From positions 16,871-80,870 of the forward strand of contig JAJDBS010000005.1 in the NCBI GenBank assembly GCA_029261235.1: 64,000 bases of DNA, read 5' to 3'. Numbering within the stretch: the first letter of the stretch is position 1; each line of letters begins with the position of its first letter. Positions 5,926 through 17,058 of this stretch are shown here, in pieces. Position numbers and translations under genes: made by a program. This stretch comes from Nitrospirales bacterium (GTDB lineage Bacteria > Nitrospirota > Nitrospiria > Nitrospirales > UBA8639). Below the pieces are notes generated by a model. That model did not search any database. It was not told the DNA's origin and saw only the letters and a program-made list of their open reading frames with translations.

Positions 5926-7428
5926 CTATGATTGAGAGGAAACCGGTTGTTGTTGTGTGAGGCAATGAAGCGTCCCAAACCCCCACACGAGATCAACAGC
6001 ATGAATGCCCACCACCGTTCGGTCGGGAAATAGATCAGACAGGATGCCGAGTGCCACTCGATCATTCGGATCATTAAACGTGGGGACTATCACGACCGAA
6101 TTACCGATATAAAAGTTCGCATAACTGGCGGGAAGTCGTTGTCCATCAAAATATATTGGGGACGGCATTGGCAAGGGCACAATCCCAATTTTCCGACCGT
6201 CTTCACAACGCATCCCTTCAAGCCGTTCCCGATTCTCCGCAAGCGGCCGATAATTGTCATCAGATGAATTGGCTTCCTGACAGAGAACCACTGTATAGGG
6301 ATCGACGAAACGACAGAGATCATCCGCATGCCCATGCGTATCATCACCCGCAATCCCCTTCCCCAACCACAACACTTGCGAAATTCCTAAATACTCTCGA
6401 AACACGTCTTCATAGTCTTGACGAGAAAATCCCTGATTCCGCACCTGAATACGTTCGTCTAAGAGACATTCTTCAGTGGTCAACAACGTCCCCTGCCCAT
6501 TCACATCGATACTGCCACCCTCCAACACTACCCCGCGCTTTTGGTGCGTTACCGGAACAAGAGGAATTTGAAATTTTGCCGCGACACGTTCGGGAATCCG
6601 ATTGTCTTTTTGCCAATCTGGATAACGGGCCCAAGCATTGAACTGAAATCTGGCAATATTGACCTGAGATTTCGCCTCGTCACTTTTCAGAAAAATAGGA
6701 CCAAAGTCGCGGGTCCACCCACGATTCGTGGGGATCCGGACAAATTCGATGTGGTCAAATTCTACCCCAACACGCGTCAAGACCCGACGAGCTTTTAGCT
6801 CATGTGCTTTATCATTAACCAGAATCCGAACGATTTCGCTTGTGGCTAGTTGACGGACGATTTCTCCATACACCCATTGAATAGCAGCCATTTTCCCAGG
6901 CCAATCCGTCGTATTGTGTGGCCAGCCAATCCACGTCGCCTCATGTCGCTCCCACTCCGCCGGCATCCGCCACTCCAATTTCACTGAAAGTTGCTGGGTA
7001 TCATCTCTCGTCCCTCTTTCTCGACTTTGATTTCCCCTCTCCCTTCCAGGGAGAGGGTTGGGGTGAGGGTCAAGACTCTCACTACCTTCTAACACCCTCA
7101 ATATCTCCTCCAACACAACATCCGTCTTGGTTAACACATCATCATTCCAAAACCGCAGCACCTGAAAACCCACAGAGCTCAAATACTTCGAACGCTCCTC
7201 ATCTGCGTCTACTTGTTCGACATGCTGCCCACCATCCAGCTCAATAATCAACATTCCTTCCAAACAACAATAAGCAACAATATAGCCACCGATGGGATGC
7301 TGACGTCTGAACTTCCAGCCCTTGAGTTGATGGTCACGAATCCTCATCCACAGCTTCTGTTCAGCATCGGTCTGACCACCTCGGAGGCGTTGAGCCAACG
7401 ATCGCAATGTTGGTGGAATTCGTTTCAC
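5926..7428 (-). CDS. aguA: Agmatine deiminase with in-frame N-terminal DUF559 (Vsr-like endonuclease) domain
   Basis: RMPAEWE, WTRDFGP, EGGSID, DDTHGHADD, ASYANF, GTLHCLTQQQP; N-terminal ~113 aa FRRQHPIGGYI...IELDGGQH...VLRFWN; possible internal start ATG 6966. Confidence 0.9.
   Translation of the reverse strand: MKRIPPTLRSLAQRLRGGQTDAEQKLWMRIRDHQLKGWKFRRQHPIGGYIVAYCCLEGMLIIELDGGQHVEQVDADEERSKYLSSVGFQVLRFWNDDVLTKTDVVLEEILRVLEGSESLDPHPNPLPGRERGNQSRERGTRDDTQQLSVKLEWRMPAEWERHEATWIGWPHNTTDWPGKMAAIQWVYGEIVRQLATSEIVRILVNDKAHELKARRVLTRVGVEFDHIEFVRIPTNRGWTRDFGPIFLKSDEAKSQVNIARFQFNAWARYPDWQKDNRIPERVAAKFQIPLVPVTHQKRGVVLEGGSIDVNGQGTLLTTEECLLDERIQVRNQGFSRQDYEDVFREYLGISQVLWLGKGIAGDDTHGHADDLCRFVDPYTVVLCQEANSSDDNYRPLAENRERLEGMRCEDGRKIGIVPLPMPSPIYFDGQRLPASYANFYIGNSVVIVPTFNDPNDRVALGILSDLFPDRTVVGIHAVDLVWGFGTLHCLTQQQPVSSQS
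7034..7069. repeat. Palindromic REP-like repeat copy 1, translated in frame as PHPNPLPGRERG
   Basis: CCCCTCTCCCttccaGGGAGAGGGTTGGGGTGAGGG. Confidence 0.85.
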
Positions 7429-7432
7429 CGTT

Positions 7433-7470
7433 CCCCTCGGCTTAATCCTCTTCCCGGAAGGGAGAGGAAG
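7433..7470. repeat. Palindromic REP-like repeat copy 2 (opposite orientation, degenerate)
   Basis: CCCCTCggcttaatCCTCTTCCCggaaGGGAGAGGAAG. Confidence 0.7.
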
Positions 7471-7534
7471 CTTTCAATCCAAGAAAAATTCAAGACTGAA
7501 GTCATTATTATGTGGAATGCAAACACAACAAAAT

Positions 7535-7570
7535 CCCCTCTCCCTGTTAGGGAGAGGGTTAGGGAGAGGG
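7535..7570. repeat. Palindromic REP-like repeat copy 3
   Basis: CCCCTCTCCCtgttaGGGAGAGGGTTAGGGAGAGGG. Confidence 0.85.
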
Positions 7571-7600
7571 TGAACGCATCAAACGGGTGCAGAGCCCGAA

Positions 7601-8479
7601 CTAATGAGACTCATCCAAAAACCTCTTCGTGATTCCGTCATACGCATCAATGCGTCGATCACGGAGAAAAGGCCAATTTCGGCGAACCTCTTCAATGCGT
7701 GTCAGATCAATATCCACCACCAACGTCTCTTCCTTATCAACTGATGCCTGGGCCAACACCACACCAAATGGATCACACACAAAGGAACTCCCCCAGAATT
7801 CCAAACCATCACCACCAGCTGGAGACTCATGACCCACTCGATTCACGGCAGCCACAAACACACCATTCGCAATCGCATGACTGCGTTGAATGGTTATCCA
7901 GGCATCTCGCTGCGCCTGACCCTCCTCAGCCTTTTCTTGAGGATGCCAGCCGATCGCCGTGGGATAGAACAAAATCTCGGCACCGAGCAACGCCGTCATT
8001 CGTGCCGCTTCGGGATACCATTGATCCCAACAAATCAACGGTCCAACAGTCGCATGAGTCGTCTTGATGGCCTGAAACCCTTTATCCCCAGGAGTGAAAT
8101 AGAACTTTTCGTAATAAGCGGGATCATCAGGAATATGCATCTTCCGATAGAACCCAGCGATCTCTCCCCGCTCATCCAACACAACAAGAGAATTGTGATA
8201 CACGCCAGCCGTCCGTCGCTCAAACACCGACACTAAAAGAGAGATTCCACGGGCCTTCGCAACCTTGCTCAACACCTCGGTTGATGGTCCTGGCACGGAT
8301 TCAGCCATATCAAACAACGCGGCGTCTTCTTGCTGACAAAAATATTGAGACCGAAACAACTCAGGCAGACAAATAATCTGTGCGCCACTGTGAGCCGCCT
8401 CTTCGACTTTTGCCACGCTCCGCTCCAAATTCTCTTCAGAATCGACCGAGCAAGCCATTTGAATCAAACCTATTTTCAT
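7601..8479 (-). CDS. aguB: N-carbamoylputrescine amidohydrolase (carbon-nitrogen hydrolase)
   Basis: CLPELF, YRKMHIPDDP.YYEKFYFTPGD, ICWDQWYPE (E-K-C triad); adjacent to aguA; start ATG 8479. Confidence 0.9.
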   Translation of the reverse strand: MKIGLIQMACSVDSEENLERSVAKVEEAAHSGAQIICLPELFRSQYFCQQEDAALFDMAESVPGPSTEVLSKVAKARGISLLVSVFERRTAGVYHNSLVVLDERGEIAGFYRKMHIPDDPAYYEKFYFTPGDKGFQAIKTTHATVGPLICWDQWYPEAARMTALLGAEILFYPTAIGWHPQEKAEEGQAQRDAWITIQRSHAIANGVFVAAVNRVGHESPAGGDGLEFWGSSFVCDPFGVVLAQASVDKEETLVVDIDLTRIEEVRRNWPFLRDRRIDAYDGITKRFLDESH

Positions 8480-8665
8480 TGTCTTTGAAGAAGTTGCCAC
8501 ATACTCAAGACTACCCAAATACCCACGTAAGAACAACTGAATAAACTGCTTAAGAAAGAAAGAGTCGGCATTATGACGACAGATACCGTCATACGCACGC
8601 AGGCGGGTATCCAGAAATTAAAAAAACTTTAACCTAATGAGTATGATCCACAAAGGTGTGCGAGC

Positions 8666-11600
8666 TTAATCAACTCCCTCGAGACATAAAACATGCACCC
8701 GCCCCGATTGCTCCCCAACTACAATTGTTCGGCCATCTGGTGCAACCACACAACAAGAAATGGGACTTTCTCCGGTAAAGGTGGCCATTTCTTTTGCACT
8801 AGCCAAGTCCCACACTTTACACATGTGATCATCCGCAACAGAGATCACGCAGGACCCCTGCGGGTTCACCAAAACTGTATTCACCGAGTTACTATGTCCG
8901 CTGAAGGTATCGAGTGCCTCGCCCGTGACCAAATCCCAGACCTTGCATGTATGATCAGTCGACCCAGAAATCGCCCACCTCCCATCTGGCGTCACAGCAA
9001 CTCCCCTCACTGAGTCACTATGCCCGCTCAGAATATGCAGTGCCTGCCCACTTACCAGGTCCCACACGATGCATGTGGCATCAGCTGAGGCAGTAATCGC
9101 GCGTGTACTATCCGGCGTCACCAGGACCCCCCTCACCGAGTTACTATGCCCACTGAGGGTATGCATTATCCGCCCAGTAACCAAATTCCACACTTGGCAG
9201 GTTAGATCAGCGGACACCGAAATTGCTCGTTCACCATCTGGAGATACCGCAACGGCCGTCACCCAGCTACTATGACCCCTCAGGGTATACAATGCCTTCC
9301 CATTGGCTAAGTCCCACACGATGCATGTGGCATCAGTCGCTACCGAAATAGCCTGCCTGCCATCTGGGGTTACCGCAATCGCCGTCACCAAATTATGATG
9401 CCCCCTCATGGCATGCAGTACCTGCCTCGTTTCCATATCCCACACGTTACATATAGCATCTTCCCCAGATGAAATTGCACGGGATCCGTCTGGCGTCACA
9501 ACGACCGCGGTTACCGAAAGACTATGTCCGCTAAGGGTAAAAAGTATCTGTCCACTTGCCAGATCCCACACTTTACACGTGCCATCATCCGACCCCGAAA
9601 TGGCCTGCGTCCCGTCTGGGGTTACCGCGACGGCCGTCACCGAATTACTATGCCCATTGAGGGGATAAAGCGCTCCCCCCCCACAACTCAGATCCCATAC
9701 TTTGCACGTGCCATCATCCGACCCCGAAATGGCCTGCGTCCCGTCTGGGGTTACCGCGACGGCCGTCACCGAATTACTATGCCCATTGAGGGAATAGAGT
9801 ATCTGTCCACTAGCCAAATCCCAGACTATACATTTGTCATCATCCGCGGCCGAAATTGTCCGCATTCCATCTGGCGTTACTATAACCGAGGTGACCCTAT
9901 CGCAATGCCCACTGAGAGTATAGAGAATTTGTCCACTAGCCAGATCCCATACTTTGCATGTGGCATCATCCGACGCGGAAATTACCTGCCGGTTATCTGG
10001 GGTCACCGCGACCGCCGTCACCCTGGCACTATGTCCATTAAGAGTATAGAGAATTTGTCCACTAGCCAGATCCCACACTTTGCACGTAAAATCAGTCGAC
10101 GCTGAAATCGCTCGCGTCCCATCTGGCGTAACTCCGACGGCCCTCACCGAATTACTATGCTCCCTTAGGATATGCTGTGCGTGCCCACTGGCCAGATTCC
10201 ACACAATGCATGTGGCATCAGCCGACCCAGAAATAGCGCAGCGCCCATCCGGCGTCACGACCACCGAAGTCACCCTGTCGCTATGTCCTCGAAGAGAATA
10301 CAATGCCTGCCCAATAGCCAGATCCCACACAATACATGTGTCATCATTCGACGCCGAAATGGCCTTCCTGCCATCTGGCGTCACCGCCACCACCGTAACC
10401 CTAGAGGTATGACCACTGAGTGTATAGAGGGTCTGCCCACTAGCCAGGTCCCACAGCTTGCACGCATGATCAACCGAAGCTGAAATCGCACGCGTCCCAT
10501 CTGGCGTCACCGCCACAGCCTTCACCGAGCTATGATGTCCTCTAAGAATCTGAAGTGCCTGCCCTGTAGCTAGGTCCCACACGATGCAAGTGCCATTATC
10601 TGACCCCGAAATGGCGCGACTCCCATACGGCGCAACCGCCACCGCAGTCACTCCACTACGATGCCCACTCAGGGTCCGAATGAGCGGCCCACCTGGTGCA
10701 ATGAGACTACATTGAAGCGGACGGAGCCACGGACTTTTTTGCCATTGCTTGCAATGCTCAACCAATTTCTGAATTTCAAGAGATTTATCCATCTGTAAAC
10801 GACCTAGCAATTGCCCCCACAATTGACTCGGATCTTTCCCCACGATATGACCTGAAAGTCTAATGGCACCCTGGATTAAACTAAAATTTTTCTCGTTTTG
10901 TAGCCAATCAAAATCCGAGAGCAGGGCCGAAATATCTAAGATTTCCAACTTCGCATAGAGCCAATCAATATTGAGCAAGAGTTTCTTCAGCTCCTCCCAC
11001 CACTCGGCTTTCACTAGATGATAGGCTAGATGCCGGCAAAGGTAAGGATCTCCAGCAGCTTTGACTGGATCATTCATCAGACCGAAAACATCGAGGAATT
11101 TCCTATGGACTACTGACAATTGCGAACCAACCCTCCCTTCGAGATAAGTACGCACCACGTCATGCAATTGAATGTGTTGTGTGATGGGATCGTAGCGAAG
11201 AACAAGCGACAATTGACTTAAACGGGTGCAAAGTTCTTCGGTATCAAAATTATCTAGCCCTCCAGTAGCGCCCCAGAGCTTGGTAATCGCACTCAATGGA
11301 ATTTCGATATCTTCTGGGAAAATCGCCAGCTCGTGATACCGAGCCAGTTCATCTTCATTCAAATGCTCAAAGCTGGCCCCAAGCGTCACAGCAACCGCTT
11401 GATTACGATCAATAGGATTTCTGGCGTCGAATGCGGTGAGCCCACGCTTTTCTAAGGCCTTGCGGACATAGATTAGGGCATCTGACAAGTCTTGCCCCCT
11501 CGCTTTCACACAATCTCGCAAAGAGGCATTCACAAGTTTTAACAGAAAGGGCCATTCGCCAAGATCCTTGGCTAAAGACTCAAGTGCCACCTCTTCCTCT

Positions 11601-12574
11601 TTCGGCAGTTCAAATGCGAGGAGTGCCACGGCTTCGCAAAGATGCATGGCATCCACATCGACTCGAAGCTTGGCGCTTGGCGGAAGAGTTCCACTATCTC
11701 GTGTTGTGATAATCCGCGCGCATCGTTTGCCTCCTCGCAAAAAAGGCGTGACATGTGCGGCATTCCAGACATCGTCAATGACCATCACACAATCCTTGCC
11801 CTTCAAGACTTCGGCTAGCTTATTGGATGCATCTTCTTGGTCGATGAAGTTCGGCCGCTCGTCTGTTAATCCTGCATAGAGTTTAGTTAGGCCTGCCATG
11901 ATATTGGGTTCTTCTCCTAGCGTGACCCACAAGATGCCATGATGAAAAACATCTTGTATCCGTTCATCATGACAGAGAGCTTTGGCCAGAGTGGTCTTTC
12001 CATAACCGCCAGCGCCTTTCAGTGCTGCCGTGATGGCGATGGGCTCTTCCAGCTGAGGACCCAGCAAACTTCCAGCCAGTTCTTCAAATTCCTTCACACG
12101 GGGCACAAAGTCGACGGGGAGATCATCAGCCATAAACGGCACCCGCGTGCCTTCATAGGGACTTTCCAACGTACGAATAAAACGAGTCCATTGCTCAGGG
12201 ACATCGGTATTCACCCACTGGACATCCCTCATCCAACTAGGGAGTTGGGTCAAATCCAAGTTGGGTTGTCCAAAAACGGGAATGACGCCCACCCCCTCCT
12301 GACGCGCCTGTCGCCATTCTTTCCTCACCACGGTGGATTCCATTGCTGCCTGGGTCATAACCAGCACCATGTATTCGACAGTTTTAAGCGCTTCAAGAAT
12401 TTGGTCCCACCAATCTTTCCCCCCTTGCATCTCAGTCCGGTCTTGCCATAGGGAAAAATTCTTCCCCAATTTCTGGCGAAGCTCACGTGCAAACTCCTCC
12501 CCATCTTTCCGTGCATAGGAAAGAAATATTCGTGGCTGAGTATTTATTGAAGAAGGATTGTTTCTTGTTGCCAT
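8666..12574 (-). CDS. TIR - NB-ARC (STAND NTPase) - APAF1-like helical - WD40 repeat protein (bacterial NLR-like)
   Basis: IFLSYARKDG...VRKEW TIR; Walker A GAGGYGKTT; Walker B VIDDVW; IITTRD; LHDVV; 15 GH...WD repeats plus one degenerate. Confidence 0.92.
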   Translation of the reverse strand: MATRNNPSSINTQPRIFLSYARKDGEEFARELRQKLGKNFSLWQDRTEMQGGKDWWDQILEALKTVEYMVLVMTQAAMESTVVRKEWRQARQEGVGVIPVFGQPNLDLTQLPSWMRDVQWVNTDVPEQWTRFIRTLESPYEGTRVPFMADDLPVDFVPRVKEFEELAGSLLGPQLEEPIAITAALKGAGGYGKTTLAKALCHDERIQDVFHHGILWVTLGEEPNIMAGLTKLYAGLTDERPNFIDQEDASNKLAEVLKGKDCVMVIDDVWNAAHVTPFLRGGKRCARIITTRDSGTLPPSAKLRVDVDAMHLCEAVALLAFELPKEEEVALESLAKDLGEWPFLLKLVNASLRDCVKARGQDLSDALIYVRKALEKRGLTAFDARNPIDRNQAVAVTLGASFEHLNEDELARYHELAIFPEDIEIPLSAITKLWGATGGLDNFDTEELCTRLSQLSLVLRYDPITQHIQLHDVVRTYLEGRVGSQLSVVHRKFLDVFGLMNDPVKAAGDPYLCRHLAYHLVKAEWWEELKKLLLNIDWLYAKLEILDISALLSDFDWLQNEKNFSLIQGAIRLSGHIVGKDPSQLWGQLLGRLQMDKSLEIQKLVEHCKQWQKSPWLRPLQCSLIAPGGPLIRTLSGHRSGVTAVAVAPYGSRAISGSDNGTCIVWDLATGQALQILRGHHSSVKAVAVTPDGTRAISASVDHACKLWDLASGQTLYTLSGHTSRVTVVAVTPDGRKAISASNDDTCIVWDLAIGQALYSLRGHSDRVTSVVVTPDGRCAISGSADATCIVWNLASGHAQHILREHSNSVRAVGVTPDGTRAISASTDFTCKVWDLASGQILYTLNGHSARVTAVAVTPDNRQVISASDDATCKVWDLASGQILYTLSGHCDRVTSVIVTPDGMRTISAADDDKCIVWDLASGQILYSLNGHSNSVTAVAVTPDGTQAISGSDDGTCKVWDLSCGGGALYPLNGHSNSVTAVAVTPDGTQAISGSDDGTCKVWDLASGQILFTLSGHSLSVTAVVVTPDGSRAISSGEDAICNVWDMETRQVLHAMRGHHNLVTAIAVTPDGRQAISVATDATCIVWDLANGKALYTLRGHSSWVTAVAVSPDGERAISVSADLTCQVWNLVTGRIMHTLSGHSNSVRGVLVTPDSTRAITASADATCIVWDLVSGQALHILSGHSDSVRGVAVTPDGRWAISGSTDHTCKVWDLVTGEALDTFSGHSNSVNTVLVNPQGSCVISVADDHMCKVWDLASAKEMATFTGESPISCCVVAPDGRTIVVGEQSGRVHVLCLEGVD
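9576..9792. repeat. Two adjacent WD40 units sharing an identical ~88 bp block
   Basis: 9576-9663 matches 9705-9792; 129 bp period. Confidence 0.9.
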
Positions 12575-12606
12575 ATTCAGGACTAGGGTTTTGTCTATCT
12601 TTAGAC

Positions 12607-12792
12607 GACGCCTGCCATCGGCTCTTATTGGTGGACGCTCTGATAATTCAACGGCCCTTGTTTGAGAGAAGCGAGTTGGGCCGTCTTCTATTAGCTTGCG
12701 TCCACCAAATTCATTTAGGCCGATTGGGCGTCAATGGTTTTGGCTCCTTTTGCCGAAACAAAAGGAGCTCGGCTGCCGGGCCGAAACCCGGC
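12607..12792. repeat. Highly structured intergenic element (MITE-like repeat or ncRNA)
   Basis: Nested stems GACGCC/GGCGTC, ATCGGC/GCCGAT, TTGGTGGACGC/GCGTCCACCAA, ACGGCCC/GGGCCGT, then hairpins GCTCCTTTTG-ccgaaa-CAAAAGGAGC and GCCGGG-ccgaaa-CCCGGC. Confidence 0.75.
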
Positions 12793-13000
12793 AAATCACG
12801 TACACTTAAATAATACCCAATTAAAGAAACCTGATAATCGTCGTTAGCTATTTTTCGCACAGAACAAAACACAAGTCTATTAATATTATAAGATGATTCT
12901 AGGAGCGCCTATGATGGCCAGAGAGAAGAAAAAAGTAAAGGCTGTGGTGGGAGATAAAGGGGAACGGTTGTCGGAGTGTTAGAGGCTCGTGGTGTCTTCA

Positions 13001-13056
13001 TCCTCACCTCAATTGTTTGTTCCGCTTCGGAACAAACCCCTTGAAGGGAGAGGAAG
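13001..13056. repeat. Degenerate copy of the DUF559-associated palindrome with an inserted hairpin
   Basis: TCCTCACCTCAAT..TTTGTTCCG-ctt-CGGAACAAA-CCCCTTGAAGGGAGAGGAAG; 3' end matches 7460-7470. Confidence 0.55.
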
Positions 13057-13098
13057 TTTCTCAATCATTCATTTTAAAGATGAGAGAGGATCACCCAT

Positions 13099-13884
13099 TT
13101 ATTCGTTTGTACGCAACATGGCGCAGCCTGGGTCTCGCGCAACGTACATGCCTGCGATTTTGCGATTGTCTTCTTTAAAGGCTTTGTGCCACCAGCGGGC
13201 CGCATTCCACAGATGCTCCGGGGCACTGTTGCGCGAGGAGGCTCCTGGTGTCACCCCCATGCCCAAACGCTCAAAAATAAACTCGATATACGCAGACGCG
13301 GCAACTGGCGTGCCTTCGCGCAACGGATTTGTTTTGGCGCCTTGCGACCAGAGGTAGATCTGCCAAGCCCCCAACATATTCCAAAAATTGTATCGCACGC
13401 GATCCGCATTCCAGGCCCTGGCTCTTTTGATTAATTTTTTCGCTTCCTCGTCAGACATGCTCACGGCCACTAAACCCACGTTAGCATCTACAGTCTTATC
13501 GTCATAGAGTCCCAAAGTCCCTTCATTCACACCATTATTCTCTGGTTTAGGAAATTGTCCATTTCGAGGGAAGAGAGGAATTTCTAATATTTCCAGATTA
13601 CTCAACGATGTTCGCGACGTCACCGGTTCTGCCACGACAAAGGCATGTGACCAGTAACTGGGTCGCAAATCCCATCGCAACATGGCCTGCGCCATGCGCA
13701 GACTATGGCCCGGCAAGTCTCGGCTTCCGACCAACCCCACGGTCATGAGACCACGATTGCCTAAATCCTGTTTCCGAAATGAGGCAAAGGCATCATTAAA
13801 AAATTGCAAGTTAGTACGCTTCTCATACTTCTTGGTCCAATCTTTAATATCAGGATTTCTCGTGCTAGTTTGGGAATCACGCAT
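13099..13884 (-). CDS. Hypothetical protein with a permuted NlpC/P60 (YiiX/YebB-like papain) pattern, catalytic Cys apparently absent
   Basis: SYWSHAFVV...ILEI...GV...RYNF...AASAYIEFIF...APEHLW follows the permuted order SH...E...Y...CS...P. Confidence 0.5.
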   Translation of the reverse strand: MRDSQTSTRNPDIKDWTKKYEKRTNLQFFNDAFASFRKQDLGNRGLMTVGLVGSRDLPGHSLRMAQAMLRWDLRPSYWSHAFVVAEPVTSRTSLSNLEILEIPLFPRNGQFPKPENNGVNEGTLGLYDDKTVDANVGLVAVSMSDEEAKKLIKRARAWNADRVRYNFWNMLGAWQIYLWSQGAKTNPLREGTPVAASAYIEFIFERLGMGVTPGASSRNSAPEHLWNAARWWHKAFKEDNRKIAGMYVARDPGCAMLRTNE

Positions 13885-13926
13885 GAGGCCGTCCTTTCTT
13901 CACATTTATATAAACATACTCATTTG

Positions 13927-15390
13927 TTAACGTAGAAGTAATTCTTTTTTGAACAATATTTTCAAGGGTCCGCCTGTGCCCTGTGAGGGTGCATCTTCAT
14001 CCCAGTCTAATTCAATGACTTGTGCGGGAAGACTCCATAATTCCAATTCAAAACGAACACGAGGGACGCCTCCGACTTGGCTTCCAGGAAAGATTTTAAC
14101 AAGCCCTACGTTATTTTTAATGGTCATGATTTCAATATTGGCTTGCGGATCGATTCGCCAGACCGATTTCGCTCCTTGTGCATTGGGATGTATTGTTATT
14201 TTCTCCGGCGGGACTTCAGGCTTATCATTCCCAGGATTGATCATGGCTGCTGGGGAGGCGATAAATTCAGGAACTCCGTAAGGTGCATCAGGAAATGGCC
14301 CATGGGCTTCCGCATACCGACCAGTGTGAATATCTCCAGATAAAATGACGATGTCGTGCGGCAAACCATGTTGATTGGTCCCCGCTAAACTTCGCTCCAA
14401 CACTCGCCACAGACGGGCGTAATCTTTCGGAAAATTAGACAGAGAATGATCCAGAAAATTACCATCTTCCTGAAATAATGGTTGACCTAGAACCAAGACA
14501 CCAGGTCCTTGCAAATTGGCTTGCCAGACCTCTAAAGCCACCCATTGGTCCTCGGACATAAAATGGCTGGTGCCCTTATCACGACAACTCTCTCGCTCAG
14601 AACGGGTATCTGCCACAAAAAAAGACACCGGCTCAATTGTGAAGTCATACCACCGAGTCTGATTGGGGTTAAGACAGACTTGGAATTGATCATATAACTT
14701 ATCAGCCCCATGACCATATTTTTTGCGGTTATTGGCATCCCAGGTTTGTGGCAAATGGATCTGTTTTTCAGGGTAGTCGTTCCAATATTCATGATCGTCA
14801 CACGTAATAAAATTTGGACAAACCTGCAAAGCTTCACGATAGAAGGCATCCCCCCAATATTGGCGATACCGTTTAGCAAATAGTTCAATAGCATTGTCAC
14901 CTAAATCCCAATCATTCGGCCAATCCAGATACACCTGATCACCAAGAAGCATTTTAAACTGAGGATTTGCCAACGACTGTAGGTCTTTGAGCCCAGCACG
15001 GTAATATCCATCTCGGTCATTGTTCTGCCAAAAACAGGAGGCAAAAAGGAACGTGACCCCTTTTTCACTGACTGCATAGGGCAACGTGGACCAGGTAAAA
15101 TCCTGGCTCTTGTTGTTTGCTGACAGGGTGAGACAAAATCGCTCTCCTTCTGGCGGAGCGGGCGTTGTGAGTGTGACAGTCAACAGGCCCATTCGACGTT
15201 TGAGGCCTGGTGCTTTGGGTAGGAGTTCCCAATGAGTTGTACAGGAGACAGAGGAACCGCAACTGTTCACTCTCACTTCTGGCGGAGAGAAATTCTTTTC
15301 CCCTTTACGCGAACACCAAATGACCCACCCCTGGCCATTGGGCAGTGGTGCTCCTGGTACGATCCATAGATTTTTCATGACGTGGATCAA
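13927..15390 (-). CDS. PhoD-like (alkaline phosphatase D) metallophosphoesterase, no export signal
   Basis: FASC, GDQVYLD, DDHEYWND, DTRSER, LSGDIH; likely start ATG 15378. Confidence 0.8.
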   Translation of the reverse strand: MIHVMKNLWIVPGAPLPNGQGWVIWCSRKGEKNFSPPEVRVNSCGSSVSCTTHWELLPKAPGLKRRMGLLTVTLTTPAPPEGERFCLTLSANNKSQDFTWSTLPYAVSEKGVTFLFASCFWQNNDRDGYYRAGLKDLQSLANPQFKMLLGDQVYLDWPNDWDLGDNAIELFAKRYRQYWGDAFYREALQVCPNFITCDDHEYWNDYPEKQIHLPQTWDANNRKKYGHGADKLYDQFQVCLNPNQTRWYDFTIEPVSFFVADTRSERESCRDKGTSHFMSEDQWVALEVWQANLQGPGVLVLGQPLFQEDGNFLDHSLSNFPKDYARLWRVLERSLAGTNQHGLPHDIVILSGDIHTGRYAEAHGPFPDAPYGVPEFIASPAAMINPGNDKPEVPPEKITIHPNAQGAKSVWRIDPQANIEIMTIKNNVGLVKIFPGSQVGGVPRVRFELELWSLPAQVIELDWDEDAPSQGTGGPLKILFKKELLLR

Positions 15391-15457
15391 CTAGATCATG
15401 ATTGAAGTTGGCGCTAAATCCTATCACAAGCGAATATTCGGATCACTAGTCAATTGC

Positions 15458-16891
15458 TCACCCCACAGGGTCGCGAGAAATCCTGGGAAGGAGTTCCTTG
15501 TCTTCTTTTCGATGGCTCTTAACTTCAGCTTCCGTTGATCTGTACCATTCTTCATCAGAAACCGGATCAATCGGTTGATCCTTGACAAGCTGCCGAAGCG
15601 TGATGCCTTCTAACGCGCCCTGTACGGCCGCATCTCGACGTATCAGTAATTGGCTCACCTTATCAGTCCCAACAGCAAAGCCTTGTGGCCCATTATGTAA
15701 TTGATGCTGCACCACCTTCAAGACGTCAGCCACGGCAATCGCTTCAGGTGGGCGCGCCAAGACCACCCCCTTCGGTTTCTCCGTGCGTATCAGCATATTG
15801 GCTTGTATCAGATCACCAATCAATGATTCCACAAACGTGAGAGGGACTCGTTGCACTCGTGCTAATTGTTCTTCTCTCAGCGGTGCTTTGCCTGATAAGA
15901 ATCGGCGCGTAATGTATCGAAGCAGGGACAAAGTCACATACTCGCGAAATAGCGGGGTTTGATGTTTTCGCCTAAGATTTAGCAAGTATGCTGAGGGGTG
16001 TTGATGATAATACGCGACTTGCGCCCCGGCCAGAACAATCAGCCATCCAACATACAACCAAATGAGAAAGAGTATGAGCACGGCAAAGCTGGAATAAATC
16101 GCGCTATACCGGCTTGAGCTTGCCACGAAAGCCGCAAAACCCATCCCCGCGAATTGCCAGCATATGCCCGACGTCAAACCTCCGACGAATGCCGAACTGA
16201 TGTTCACCGGTGTATTTGGCACAAATTTGTACAAGAAGGTGAACAGCATACACATAAATAAGAAGGGCAAGAGATTCGTCAGTACCACAATGAGATAGCC
16301 AAATGGCTGAATCTCCATCGCTCGTTGGACCAACCAATGACTTTGGGAAGAGGCCATCAGACCGAATGCGGTAAACACAAAGACTGGACCAACCAAGACC
16401 ACGCTTAAATAATCGGTGATGCGCCTCGCTAACGGACGACCAATTTCTATGCGCCAAATGGAATTGAGCGCCTCTTCTATTTTTTCAATGAGCGAATAGG
16501 TCGTATAAAAGAGCCCCGCGACACCCACCGCGCCTAAGACTCCAACTTTCAAGTTGTCGACAAACTGGATGATATTCGTGGTAATCTCCACGCCTTTTTC
16601 ACCTAGCGGATCAAAGGCCTGAGACAGAATGGGTTCAATTTGCTGATGAACGCCAAAGGCCTTCAACACAGAAAATGTCACAGCCAGGAAGGGAACCATT
16701 GAGAGCAGCGTGGTATAGACGAGGCTTGTCGCCCGGATACTTAAAAAGCTTTCACGGAATTCTGTCGCTGCGACTAGTCCGAGACGCAAACACTTCACGC
16801 CAAACTGGCGAAAGCCAGTGAGCTCATGAACACGCAACTTCCACACATCATGTTCACAAAAACGTATAATTCGATCGATGGTCGTCATCAT
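15458..16891 (-). CDS. YihY/BrkB family inner-membrane protein with C-terminal Rrf2-like winged helix
   Basis: ATSLVYTTLLSMVP, ALNSIW, LYKFVPN, YSAIYSSFAVLILFLIWLY...GAQ; GVVLARPPEAI. Confidence 0.88.
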   Translation of the reverse strand: MMTTIDRIIRFCEHDVWKLRVHELTGFRQFGVKCLRLGLVAATEFRESFLSIRATSLVYTTLLSMVPFLAVTFSVLKAFGVHQQIEPILSQAFDPLGEKGVEITTNIIQFVDNLKVGVLGAVGVAGLFYTTYSLIEKIEEALNSIWRIEIGRPLARRITDYLSVVLVGPVFVFTAFGLMASSQSHWLVQRAMEIQPFGYLIVVLTNLLPFLFMCMLFTFLYKFVPNTPVNISSAFVGGLTSGICWQFAGMGFAAFVASSSRYSAIYSSFAVLILFLIWLYVGWLIVLAGAQVAYYHQHPSAYLLNLRRKHQTPLFREYVTLSLLRYITRRFLSGKAPLREEQLARVQRVPLTFVESLIGDLIQANMLIRTEKPKGVVLARPPEAIAVADVLKVVQHQLHNGPQGFAVGTDKVSQLLIRRDAAVQGALEGITLRQLVKDQPIDPVSDEEWYRSTEAEVKSHRKEDKELLPRISRDPVG

Positions 16892-17058
16892 TGTCGTATC
16901 ATTCCTTGATCGCTACACTACAAAGAGCTACGAAAAATGTCTAGACAATCATTCGCTTCTTCATGTTGCTTTTCTGAAGCGACTCTTGCGGCACAACAGC
17001 AAGCATACGTCCAACAAGTCATGCCTCTGCAGCTCTTCATGAAACGGATTATTTATTC

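Follow-up and report, generated by a model that had tools for sequence, protein, structure and literature searches.

An accessory Nitrospirales gene encodes a TIR/NB-ARC/WD40 STAND protein with an Apaf-1-like predicted fold

Introduction

Apaf-1 combines a CARD adaptor with an NBD-HD1-WHD-HD2 switch bearing Walker A, Walker B, TTR and LHD motifs, followed by tandem WD40 propellers (PDB 1z6t, 3sfz and 5juy), and its ligand is cytochrome c. The bacterial protein described here has the same switch and tandem propellers, but it carries a TIR enzyme where Apaf-1 has its adaptor, so that no caspase recruitment would be needed. Plant TIR-NLRs (RPP1, ROQ1) and TNP proteins (TIR-NB-ARC-like-WD40/TPR) similarly place a TIR with a catalytic glutamate ahead of the NB-ARC, and in the plant TIR-NLRs oligomerisation on ligand makes the TIR NADase sites, a logic that may be expected here too; they differ in having an LRR sensor with a C-JID and an EDS1-type pathway, whereas the present protein has WD40 repeats and a TIR_2-type TIR. 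Among bacterial STAND defence proteins whose function has been tested, Avs1-5/Avs7, bNACHT and the TIR-NLR of PADLOC (TIR-NB-ARC-TPR) are likewise immune receptors that combine effector, NOD and sensor in one polypeptide, but with TPR-like rather than WD40 sensors. The fungal HET-E/HET-D/NWD proteins share with it a STAND NTPase followed by a WD40 sensor array, a repeat number that differs between orthologues, and variable residues that include the post-GH positions and the SxDxT turn; they differ in having a NACHT NOD and in having units that are 80-90% identical, with concerted evolution and positive selection. A chain from Nostoc punctiforme (2ymu) has the same VTPDG...SxSxDxTxKVWD repeat scaffold, but it is a propeller-only chain of 577 residues and is uninformative on function.

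TIR has been described as an N-terminal domain of bacterial NLRs (bioRxiv 10.1101/2020.01.06.895854; PMC7159879). In its accessible text, a 2026 survey of STAND proteins (PMC13581612) reports bacterial Apaf-1 orthologues with beta-propeller sensors and classifies 198 of 589 prokaryotic STAND clades as defence-associated; that text does not state the class of the Apaf-1-like clade, and it highlights caspase-like heads and names no TIR-headed form. Here we analyse one such gene within a 64,000-nucleotide stretch of a Nitrospirales genome (the window).

Results

The gene and its domain layout

The gene occupies 8666..12574 on the minus strand of the window and encodes a STAND protein of 1302 aa with a TIR, an NB-ARC, an HD2 and a 16-blade WD40 array; the frame runs without interruption over 3909 nt to a stop codon at 8666-8668. 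The TIR/NB-ARC/WD40 architecture of the original prediction proved right, with the N-terminal domains recovered by Pfam (residues 1-640) and 15 WD40 stretches found on the full-length protein (E 4e-136). The TIR domain (residues 14-140; 12155..12535, minus strand) is delimited by Pfam TIR_2 (residues 16-124, E 9e-19), by TIR matches in the PDB and by the AF2 model. It is followed by an NB-ARC module of NBD, HD1 and winged helix (residues 153-485; 11120..12118, minus strand), placed by Pfam (residues 182-294, E 4e-15), phmmer, Foldseek and invariant motifs, and then by an HD2/APAF1_C domain that joins the switch to the propellers (residues 489-610; 10745..11110, minus strand), which matches APAF1_C (PF17908) at residues 489-582 (E 2.7e-9), aligns with the HD2 of Apaf-1 and is helical in the AF2 model.

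The public gene call begins at M49 and truncates the TIR. A 30-member family alignment is conserved from residue 14 onward, and since residues 14-48 are conserved across phyla the long start at 12574 is the real one. Because automatic calling removes part of the TIR in this way, surveys may undercount the TIR heads of the family. No strong Shine-Dalgarno sequence is visible before the ATG at 12574, and scans for promoters and terminators gave signals at or below shuffle expectation.

The NB-ARC switch resembles that of Apaf-1

As had been predicted, the nucleotide-binding and switch motifs are intact, and all can be read directly on the minus strand: Walker A (GAGGYGKTT, residues 187-195; 11990-12016), Walker B (VMVIDDVW; 11765-11791), TTR (RIITTR; 11699-11716) and LHD (L470 H471 D472, residues 470-472; 11153-11173), the last of which lines up with the LHD of Apaf-1. 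In the alignment of 30 family members each is either invariant or conserved at 90% or more. Apaf-1 (1z6t) is the best match both by sequence (phmmer, E 1e-21 over residues 153-585, identity ~22%) and by fold (Foldseek, E 5e-19, TMq 0.57-0.60, TMt 0.62-0.64), and RPP1 and ROQ1 are among the other Foldseek matches. The AF2 model of residues 1-640 (pLDDT 85.8) superimposes on ADP-bound Apaf-1 (1z6t/3sfz) with an rmsd of ~4.4 A over ~500 columns, compared with ~24 A for open apoptosome chains; in the model these 640 residues resemble closed, ADP-bound Apaf-1 best. P-loop NBD motifs, a winged helix with HD2, and C-terminal tandem WD40 propellers, the features of an Apaf-1-type STAND protein, are all found.

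The TIR retains the catalytic glutamate

Strands and helices alternate along the TIR in the AF2 model (pLDDT ~80-90), which together with the TIR_2 match indicates a flavodoxin-like fold. PDB matches of the domain include 9m0n, SPARTA TIR-APAZ, SARM1 and AbTIR; it aligns best, catalytic glutamate motif included, with the TIR of 9m0n, for which we found no paper in the literature. This structure is, we presume, probably the PADLOC 'TIR-NLR' (TIR-NB-ARC-TPR). Glu86 of the VRKEW motif (codon 12317..12319, minus strand), the predicted catalytic glutamate of a TIR NADase, aligns without gaps with the glutamate of VKKEI in 9m0n and lies 12 residues past the end of strand C, presumably the same offset as in AbTIR and SPARTA TIR. 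We take it to be the counterpart of SARM1 E642, AbTIR E208 and SPARTA E77, going by published motif spacing rather than by superposition. With V83, R84, K85, W87 and R88 it is at least 90% conserved in the 30-member alignment, and this conservation and the alignment to 9m0n place a catalytic glutamate where helix C begins; the prediction that the TIR keeps the NADase glutamate is thus borne out at this position. No published NAD+ cleavage or phage protection by any TIR/NB-ARC/WD40 family member was found in the literature.

The WD40 sensor varies on both faces

Fifteen canonical WD40 units (residues 626-1256; 8807..10699, minus strand) repeat with a period of 42 aa, one of them having 43, and are followed by a degenerate 46-aa blade that forms a C-terminal cap ending ...DGRTIVVGEQSGRVHVLCLEGVD (8669..8806, minus strand), giving 16 blades where Apaf-1 has 15 and agreeing with the 15 to 16 units that had been counted. 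The AF2 model of the sensor is all-beta (pLDDT 87.8), with a pTM of 0.46 at which neither a 7+9 versus 8+8 blade split nor the inter-propeller geometry can be read. Its best fold match is 2ymu, a highly repetitive Nostoc double propeller, at 38% identity, and the Apaf-1 propellers match as well.

The repeat units have a mean pairwise nucleotide identity of 66% (range 50-88%), well apart from the 80-90% of the fungal units. Only units 8 and 9 (9563..9817, minus strand) share a long identical tract, of ~100 consecutive nucleotides; they are 88% identical overall, differ only in the first nine codons, and are the only place in the array where a recent duplication or conversion has left its trace. 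The GH+3 triplets are exactly those given in the original prediction, with SNS occurring five times, but the variation is not peculiar to these positions: the bottom-face loops vary equally, with a mean entropy of 1.94 bits against 1.91 bits at top-face positions. Diversifying selection on a recognition face is therefore not demonstrated. Codons 3, 8, 16, 34 and 35 of the unit have pN above pS, but synonymous sites among the units are saturated (mean pS 0.61), which makes per-codon pN/pS uninformative, and codon 35 (pN 0.05, pS 0) carries no weight. The array gives no clear indication of an arms race, and the suggested parallel with HET-E/NWD proteins is too weak to hold, given an NB-ARC rather than a NACHT NOD, repeats at 66% identity, saturated synonymous sites and two equally variable faces.

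The gene is accessory within the genus

Orthologues occur in 10 of 49 other species of the same, Nitrospira-like genus, in every case flanked by a 261-aa gene and aguB; of 30 high-quality genomes, its own among them, 5 have the gene. Comparison with the closest relative (G016) defines a 4.6-kb presence/absence segment (8480..13098) that contains the receptor gene, a 524-bp upstream spacer, a downstream spacer of ~187 bp and nothing else. In its place G016 has just 29 bp separating aguB from the 261-aa gene, with flanks that are 84.5% and 93.4% identical at the nucleotide level. The empty site is seen also in G045, G006, G021, G041 and G013; aguB itself is present in 27 of 31 genomes. Inspection of the indel borders revealed neither a target-site duplication nor an inverted repeat. 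The gene is accessory in the genus, and its distribution is not that of a conserved core gene.

Where present, the gene is under constraint. Compared with three orthologues it has a pN of 0.10-0.16 and a pS of 0.67-0.77, and strong purifying selection acts on its TIR and NOD. Congeneric orthologues range from 840 to 1254 aa and differ in repeat number, the cap blade being retained regardless, and that of G052 is split by an internal TAG.

Neighbours, upstream repeat and spread of the family

The adjoining genes are housekeeping ones (aguB, aguA and a PhoD-like phosphatase), and there is no defence island. The PhoD-like gene and the upstream 261-aa gene were considered as partners and rejected, both staying together in genomes that lack the NLR. 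For 80 related loci on genome contigs, drawn from over 12 phyla and also from archaea, the 925 flanking ORFs were clustered all against all, which yielded only lineage-specific synteny and antisense artefacts and no conserved partner. As no neighbour is conserved across the 80 loci, the receptor is a stand-alone module; some family loci adjoin other NLR-like genes (CHAT-TPR, TIR-NACHT-TPR and a second WD40 giant).

The family numbers more than 1300 homologues at ~40-55% identity, in Nitrospirota, Acidobacteriota, Chloroflexota, Proteobacteria, Cyanobacteriota, Planctomycetota and ANME/Methanosarcinales archaea, with plasmid-borne relatives at 30-34% identity. This broad occurrence across phyla, together with the plasmid-borne relatives, suggests that the family has spread horizontally. 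The phage collection contained no homologue.

A dispersed MITE-like repeat of ~190 bp (12606..12794) lies 33 bp upstream of the start codon, within the strain-specific insert. There is no Rfam match in 12400-13200 at E <= 1, so that this 'structured element' is not a known RNA family; it proved to be a dispersed repeat, present in its own genome as 45 copies that are 120 bp or longer (72-82% identity) and an 80%-identical copy upstream of the G044 orthologue. The genes next to its other copies are generic (glucokinase, esterase, YCII, an IS fragment, hypotheticals), so that an NLR-specific regulatory role is unlikely.

Matches to catalogued defence systems

The receptor had been predicted to be an anti-phage or non-self sensor, and the defence catalogue does not recognise it as a system: PADLOC v2 returned no full-length model or system call, only TIR-level matches (E 1e-5 to 5e-9). 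Its TIR-NLR model (PDLC03015) covers residues 16-91 only (E 2.6e-7), the match to its HEAT-ARM_XIII model is restricted to the WD repeats, and its Avs/AVAST models gave no match. The TIR also matches, below threshold, the PADLOC SAVED-TIR and pAgo-TIR models and the NCBIfam model of Thoeris type III ThcB4 (42.9 bits, cutoff 220), and no Thoeris-type (ThsA-like) reader is conserved beside the TIR gene in the 80 loci. Other TIR proteins are encoded in the same genome, including a TIR-CHAT-NACHT-like-TPR giant, and a true TIR-NB-ARC-TPR gene lies on contig C36. At the level of the family, the receptor is a typical member of one already well catalogued.

Discussion

We favour the view, with a probability of about 0.6, that the product of this gene is a bacterial Apaf-1 orthologue that stands alone and has a TIR NADase in place of the CARD, acting as a ligand-triggered, oligomerising receptor in defence or cell death. 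The ligand, the oligomerisation step, the NADase activity and the protection are all proposed on the model of Apaf-1, the plant TNL resistosomes and bacterial Avs/bNACHT proteins. At rest the protein would be a closed, ADP-bound monomer, its NB-ARC held shut by the WD40 propellers and HD2. The tandem propellers would bind a protein ligand, most likely from a phage or other mobile element, releasing the lock and allowing ADP/ATP exchange and NOD-mediated oligomerisation; the N-terminal TIRs could then join into composite active sites that use Glu86 and cleave NAD+, so that the infected cell would be arrested or killed (abortive infection). The accessory distribution, stand-alone status and purifying selection fit a single-gene immune or cell-death sensor.

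Several observations count against this reading, namely the housekeeping neighbours, the lack of a homologue in the phage collection, repeats with no clear sign of an arms race and the lack of a full-length PADLOC model.

Other explanations differ in what the TIR does or in what is sensed. The TIR might, as in Thoeris, make a signalling nucleotide, such as a cADPR isomer, for a separate distal effector instead of depleting NAD+ in bulk, as the sub-threshold ThcB4, SAVED-TIR and pAgo-TIR matches and the further TIR proteins of the genome, its TIR-CHAT-NACHT-like-TPR giant among them, would allow; signalling TIR systems normally have an adjacent reader gene, however, and with no effector gene linked here or in the 80 loci across phyla we consider this unlikely, bearing in mind that, the MAG being 83% complete, a distal reader could exist. 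We are similarly doubtful of a receptor for regulated cell death or for self/non-self discrimination (allorecognition or kin discrimination) in aggregate-forming Nitrospira, comparable to HET-E/NWD or to the 'bacterial apoptosis' that has been suggested in multicellular bacteria, and not an anti-phage sensor; the literature contains this idea (Koonin and Aravind 2002, cited in 10.1101/2020.01.06.895854; PMC7159879). Presence/absence polymorphism within the genus, orthologues of 840 to 1254 aa that change repeat number and conserve the cap, and a family rich in filamentous or aggregate-forming lineages (Chloroflexota, Acidobacteriota, cyanobacteria) would all suit such a role, but the repeats are only 66% identical with saturated pS, the top face has no excess variability, the gene is not linked to a partner allele or to a polymorphic ligand gene, and the NOD is NB-ARC where that of HET-E is NACHT.

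That the protein is a non-immune STAND transducer of an endogenous stress or metabolic cue, its TIR a mere protein-protein scaffold, seems very improbable. Many bacterial STANDs, MalT and AfsR for example, act as regulators, the NOD has AfsR among its sequence matches, and metabolic genes surround the locus; yet the catalytic glutamate and its motif hardly vary across the family, the protein lacks a DNA-binding or other output domain, and the distribution is patchy and accessory. A decaying or non-functional remnant, kept by chance in the MAG, is scarcely credible: the split G052 orthologue, the public call at M49 and the missing strong Shine-Dalgarno sequence would be in keeping with decay, but the 3909-nt frame is uninterrupted, every motif is intact, comparison with three orthologues gives a pN/pS well below 1, and residues 14-48 are conserved across phyla. 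As a variant on the ligand, the propellers might clamp a host danger signal instead of a phage protein, much as Apaf-1 clamps cytochrome c; one example would be a c-type cytochrome or another protein of the periplasm that would enter the cytoplasm upon envelope breach in this nitrite oxidiser. We regard this as a long shot; if true, it would be a real bacterial 'apoptosome' with a TIR executioner.

For the favoured reading, that of an Apaf-1-like receptor with a TIR NADase, G000 (gene) and G016 (empty site) form a clean natural presence/absence pair, and the congeneric orthologues with differing blade numbers could help in selecting constructs; beyond these the present copy adds little to the general case. 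If the mechanism were shown for any member of the family, a bacterial WD40-sensor NLR would for the first time have a known ligand, and the animal apoptosome, plant TIR resistosomes and bacterial immunity would be connected through a single protein.

Gene model, motifs and predicted fold

The NLR is encoded at window positions 8666..12574 on the minus strand by a single uninterrupted ORF of 1302 codons. Pfam searches with residues 1-640 identify a TIR_2 domain (residues 16-124, E 9e-19), an NB-ARC domain (residues 182-294, E 4e-15), and APAF1_C, the Apaf-1 helical domain (residues 489-582, E 2.7e-9), and the whole protein contains 15 WD40 stretches (E 4e-136) together with many beta-propeller family matches. 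The closest solved structures by sequence are Apaf-1 chains (1z6t, E 1e-21 over residues 153-585), followed by AfsR and plant NLRs. The intact ORF, the order of the Pfam domains, and the Apaf-1 matches thus bear out the coordinates, strand and domain order of the original prediction.

A public call for this gene on the same contig (P0003, 1254 aa) begins at M49 and leaves out window positions 12431-12574, and a start at M49 would cost the TIR domain its first strand and first helix. Residues F17, S19, D24, G25, L32, L36 and D45 do not vary in the family alignment (A1, 30 members), and the congeneric orthologues align from residue 1, which shows the ATG at 12574 to be the true start.

Catalytic and switch motifs were read directly from the protein, and their conservation from the same 30 family members, which share 48-77% identity. 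The TIR motif STVVRKEWRQA includes Glu86, and positions V83-R88, with E86 among them, are at least 90% conserved. Walker A (GAGGYGKTT) and Walker B (CVMVIDDVW) are present together with RIITTR and IQLHDVV motifs, and G187-T194, D267, D268, T290-R292 and L470-D472 are invariant. E86 aligns without gaps with the glutamate of ESEWVKKEI in the TIR domain of PDB 9m0n, the best TIR match; in the HMMER alignment to the SPARTA TIR-APAZ protein a 5-residue gap is placed differently. Counted from the end of strand C, E86 is at +12, the same offset as that of the catalytic glutamates of SPARTA and AbTIR.

Residues 1-640 were modelled with AlphaFold2 on A1, giving a mean pLDDT of 85.8. In a Foldseek search of the PDB the top matches are to ADP-bound Apaf-1 (1z6t, 3sfz and 3shf; E about 5e-19 to 3e-18), with TMq 0.57-0.60 and an rmsd of ~4.4 Å over ~500 columns, whereas the chains of the active, open apoptosome are at ~24 Å, and the model therefore looks like a closed, autoinhibited state. 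Plant NRC/ZAR1/RPP1/ROQ1, CED-4 and Dark rank lower. The model of residues 620-1302 (pLDDT 87.8, pTM 0.46) is best matched by 2ymu, the Nostoc 'highly repetitive propeller' (38% identity), and then by proteins with two propellers, among them the WD region of Apaf-1. Two propellers in the sensor are well supported by modelling, and a particular division of the 16 blades between them is not supported at this pTM.

The WD40 repeat array

The array comprises 15 units of 42 aa (43 in unit 9) at residues 626-1256, and a degenerate final blade of 46 aa follows, conserved in all orthologues. The triplets of residues originally listed after GH in each unit match the array exactly. Compared pairwise at the nucleotide level, the units are on average 66% identical (range 50-88%). 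Synonymous differences are saturated (mean pS 0.61), and mean pN is 0.25. A long stretch of identity (~100 nt) is confined to units 8 and 9 and marks a single recent duplication or conversion. Variable columns lie in the C-D loop (2, 3, 5, 6), strand D (8, 9, 11), the D-A loop after GH (14-16), the A-B loop (27, 28) and the B-C turn (34, 36), and they are the columns marked 'x' in the consensus of the whole family. Entropy averages 1.91 bits at top-face positions and 1.94 bits at bottom-face loop positions. The scaffold is thus held by purifying selection, and every exposed loop on it varies.

In HET-E/NWD proteins, by contrast, units are 80-90% identical and one face is under positive selection (10.1101/2020.01.06.895854), a regime that is not that of the NLR, whose units are on average 66% identical and variable on both faces. 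The TIR-NB-ARC-WD40 observation in the original prediction stands, but HET-E-like hypervariability is unsupported. Blade number varies among orthologues and across the family, and part of this spread may come from metagenome assembly.

Occurrence in the genus and chromosomal site

The MAG holding the window is 4.17 Mb in 264 contigs and 83% complete, and the named homologues and syntenic records are from Nitrospira or Nitrospirota. Orthologues with 75-84% identity are present in 9 of the genus's 49 other species representatives, and a 46%-identical relative, the only one in G063, raises the count to 10/49 at E <= 1e-40; five of 30 high-quality genomes have matches, this one counted. In G052 (C481:2097-4046) the orthologue is split in two, with a TAG inside it. 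The split could come from an assembly error or make this copy a pseudogene, and it fits turnover of the NLR within the genus.

In all carriers examined (G000, the genome of the window, and G019, G002 and G044) the NLR lies between a 261-aa gene with no Pfam match and aguB (CN_hydrolase), its downstream neighbour, which is present in 27 of 31 genomes. The same two genes are adjacent without the NLR in G016, G045, G006, G021, G041 and G013. In G016, the closest relative, the flanking proteins are up to 97% identical, and 29 bp stand in place of window positions 8480-13098. A conserved core-genome distribution, which was to count against an immune sensor, is thus not what is seen. Because the NLR diverges from its orthologues about as much as the flanking genes do (77% versus 68-83%, with G019), a gene present in the ancestor and lost repeatedly is as likely as one gained through homologous recombination. 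The insert flanks differ in similarity to G016 (L047), with 84.5% nucleotide identity on the aguB/aguA side (5938-8479) and 93.4% on the other (13099-17000), and this could mean that the NLR site is a breakpoint of recombination.

Several other features of the locus and genome were noted. The mechanical aguB ORF begins at TTG 8536, and its orthologues, including that of G016 (MKTGLIQ...), begin at the MKIGLIQ methionine near 8479, which makes the spacer from the NLR stop ~187 bp and not 130 bp. The agmatine deiminase ORF (5926-7428) has an N-terminal DUF559 (Vsr-like endonuclease) domain in frame; it aligns from residue 1-3 in 11 of 12 congeneric loci by tblastn, so that this arrangement occurs widely in the genus, and in G004, which is without it, the match begins at residue 149. 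A MITE-like dispersed repeat of ~190 bp (12606-12794), with no Rfam match, is part of the strain-specific insert, 33 bp upstream of the NLR start codon. The genome has 45 copies of at least 120 bp with 72-82% identity (e.g. C59:9454-9642, C253:12698-12886, and three each on C94 and C46), and an 80%-identical copy is upstream of the G044 orthologue. The repeat is within ~330 bp of three of the four TIR-encoding loci of the genome, the remaining neighbours being generic genes. Two further TIR-headed STAND giants are encoded in the genome (C189:4148-8551, L063; C36:6198-8819, L064:1199-3820), one a 1467-aa TIR / CHAT (caspase-like) / NACHT-like AAA / TPR protein and the other an 873-aa TIR / NB-ARC / TPR protein of the PADLOC 'TIR-NLR' type; contig C80 carries a TIR fragment with an internal TGA.

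The family beyond the genus

The N-terminal 640 residues have matches in more than 1300 database proteins. Eighty fetched loci with 36-55% identity represent Nitrospirota, Acidobacteriota, Chloroflexota, Gemmatimonadota, Planctomycetota, Cyanobacteriota, Actinomycetota, Firmicutes, Zixibacteria, Alpha-, Beta-, Gamma- and Deltaproteobacteria, and ANME/Methanosarcinales archaea. More distant relatives (30-34%) are carried on plasmids of Rhizobium, Acaryochloris and Streptomyces, and none was found in the phage genomes searched. A Geobacter MAG (L114, CAYQTC010000002.1, 715-14784) has three NLR-like conflict genes clustered, with the family member flanked by a 1874-aa DUF7379 / LCAT / CHAT / TPR-S protein and a 1019-aa TIR / NACHT / TPR protein, and in a Caldilineaceae MAG the family member adjoins a second WD40 giant. 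Clustering of 925 flanking ORFs from the 80 loci gave no neighbour common across phyla. The NLR is a self-contained module, and it appears to move horizontally.

Proposed function

If it works like Apaf-1, plant TNL resistosomes and bacterial Avs/bNACHT receptors, the propellers would capture a ligand and release the closed NB-ARC, with nucleotide exchange and oligomerisation; the gathered TIR domains would then cleave NAD+ via E86, and the cell would be arrested or die. This ligand-triggered TIR NADase mechanism is the likeliest, and we infer all of it beyond the closed NB-ARC. The broader reading as an immune sensor is reasonable but unproven.

The TIR domain might instead produce a signal for a reader lying distally in the genome; no effector gene is linked to the NLR here or in the 80 loci, and we consider this unlikely, and a role as an allorecognition or developmental death receptor unlikely to the same degree. 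A non-enzymatic regulator, in which the TIR would be a scaffold only, is improbable. Against three orthologues the TIR domain and NB-ARC switch module have pN 0.10-0.16 and pS 0.67-0.77, indicative of strong purifying selection, and a decaying gene is the least probable reading.

Sequence surveys have long recorded the TIR/NB-ARC/WD40 architecture (Koonin and Aravind 2002, as cited in 10.1101/2020.01.06.895854; PMC7159879), and our literature search returned no report of activity, ligand or protection phenotype for a member. The PADLOC 'TIR-NLR' model describes the TPR-sensor type, and only its TIR component matched here. The NLR belongs to a catalogued, already known family with a predicted function, and surveys of it built on gene calls such as P0003 may miss or mis-score the TIR head.
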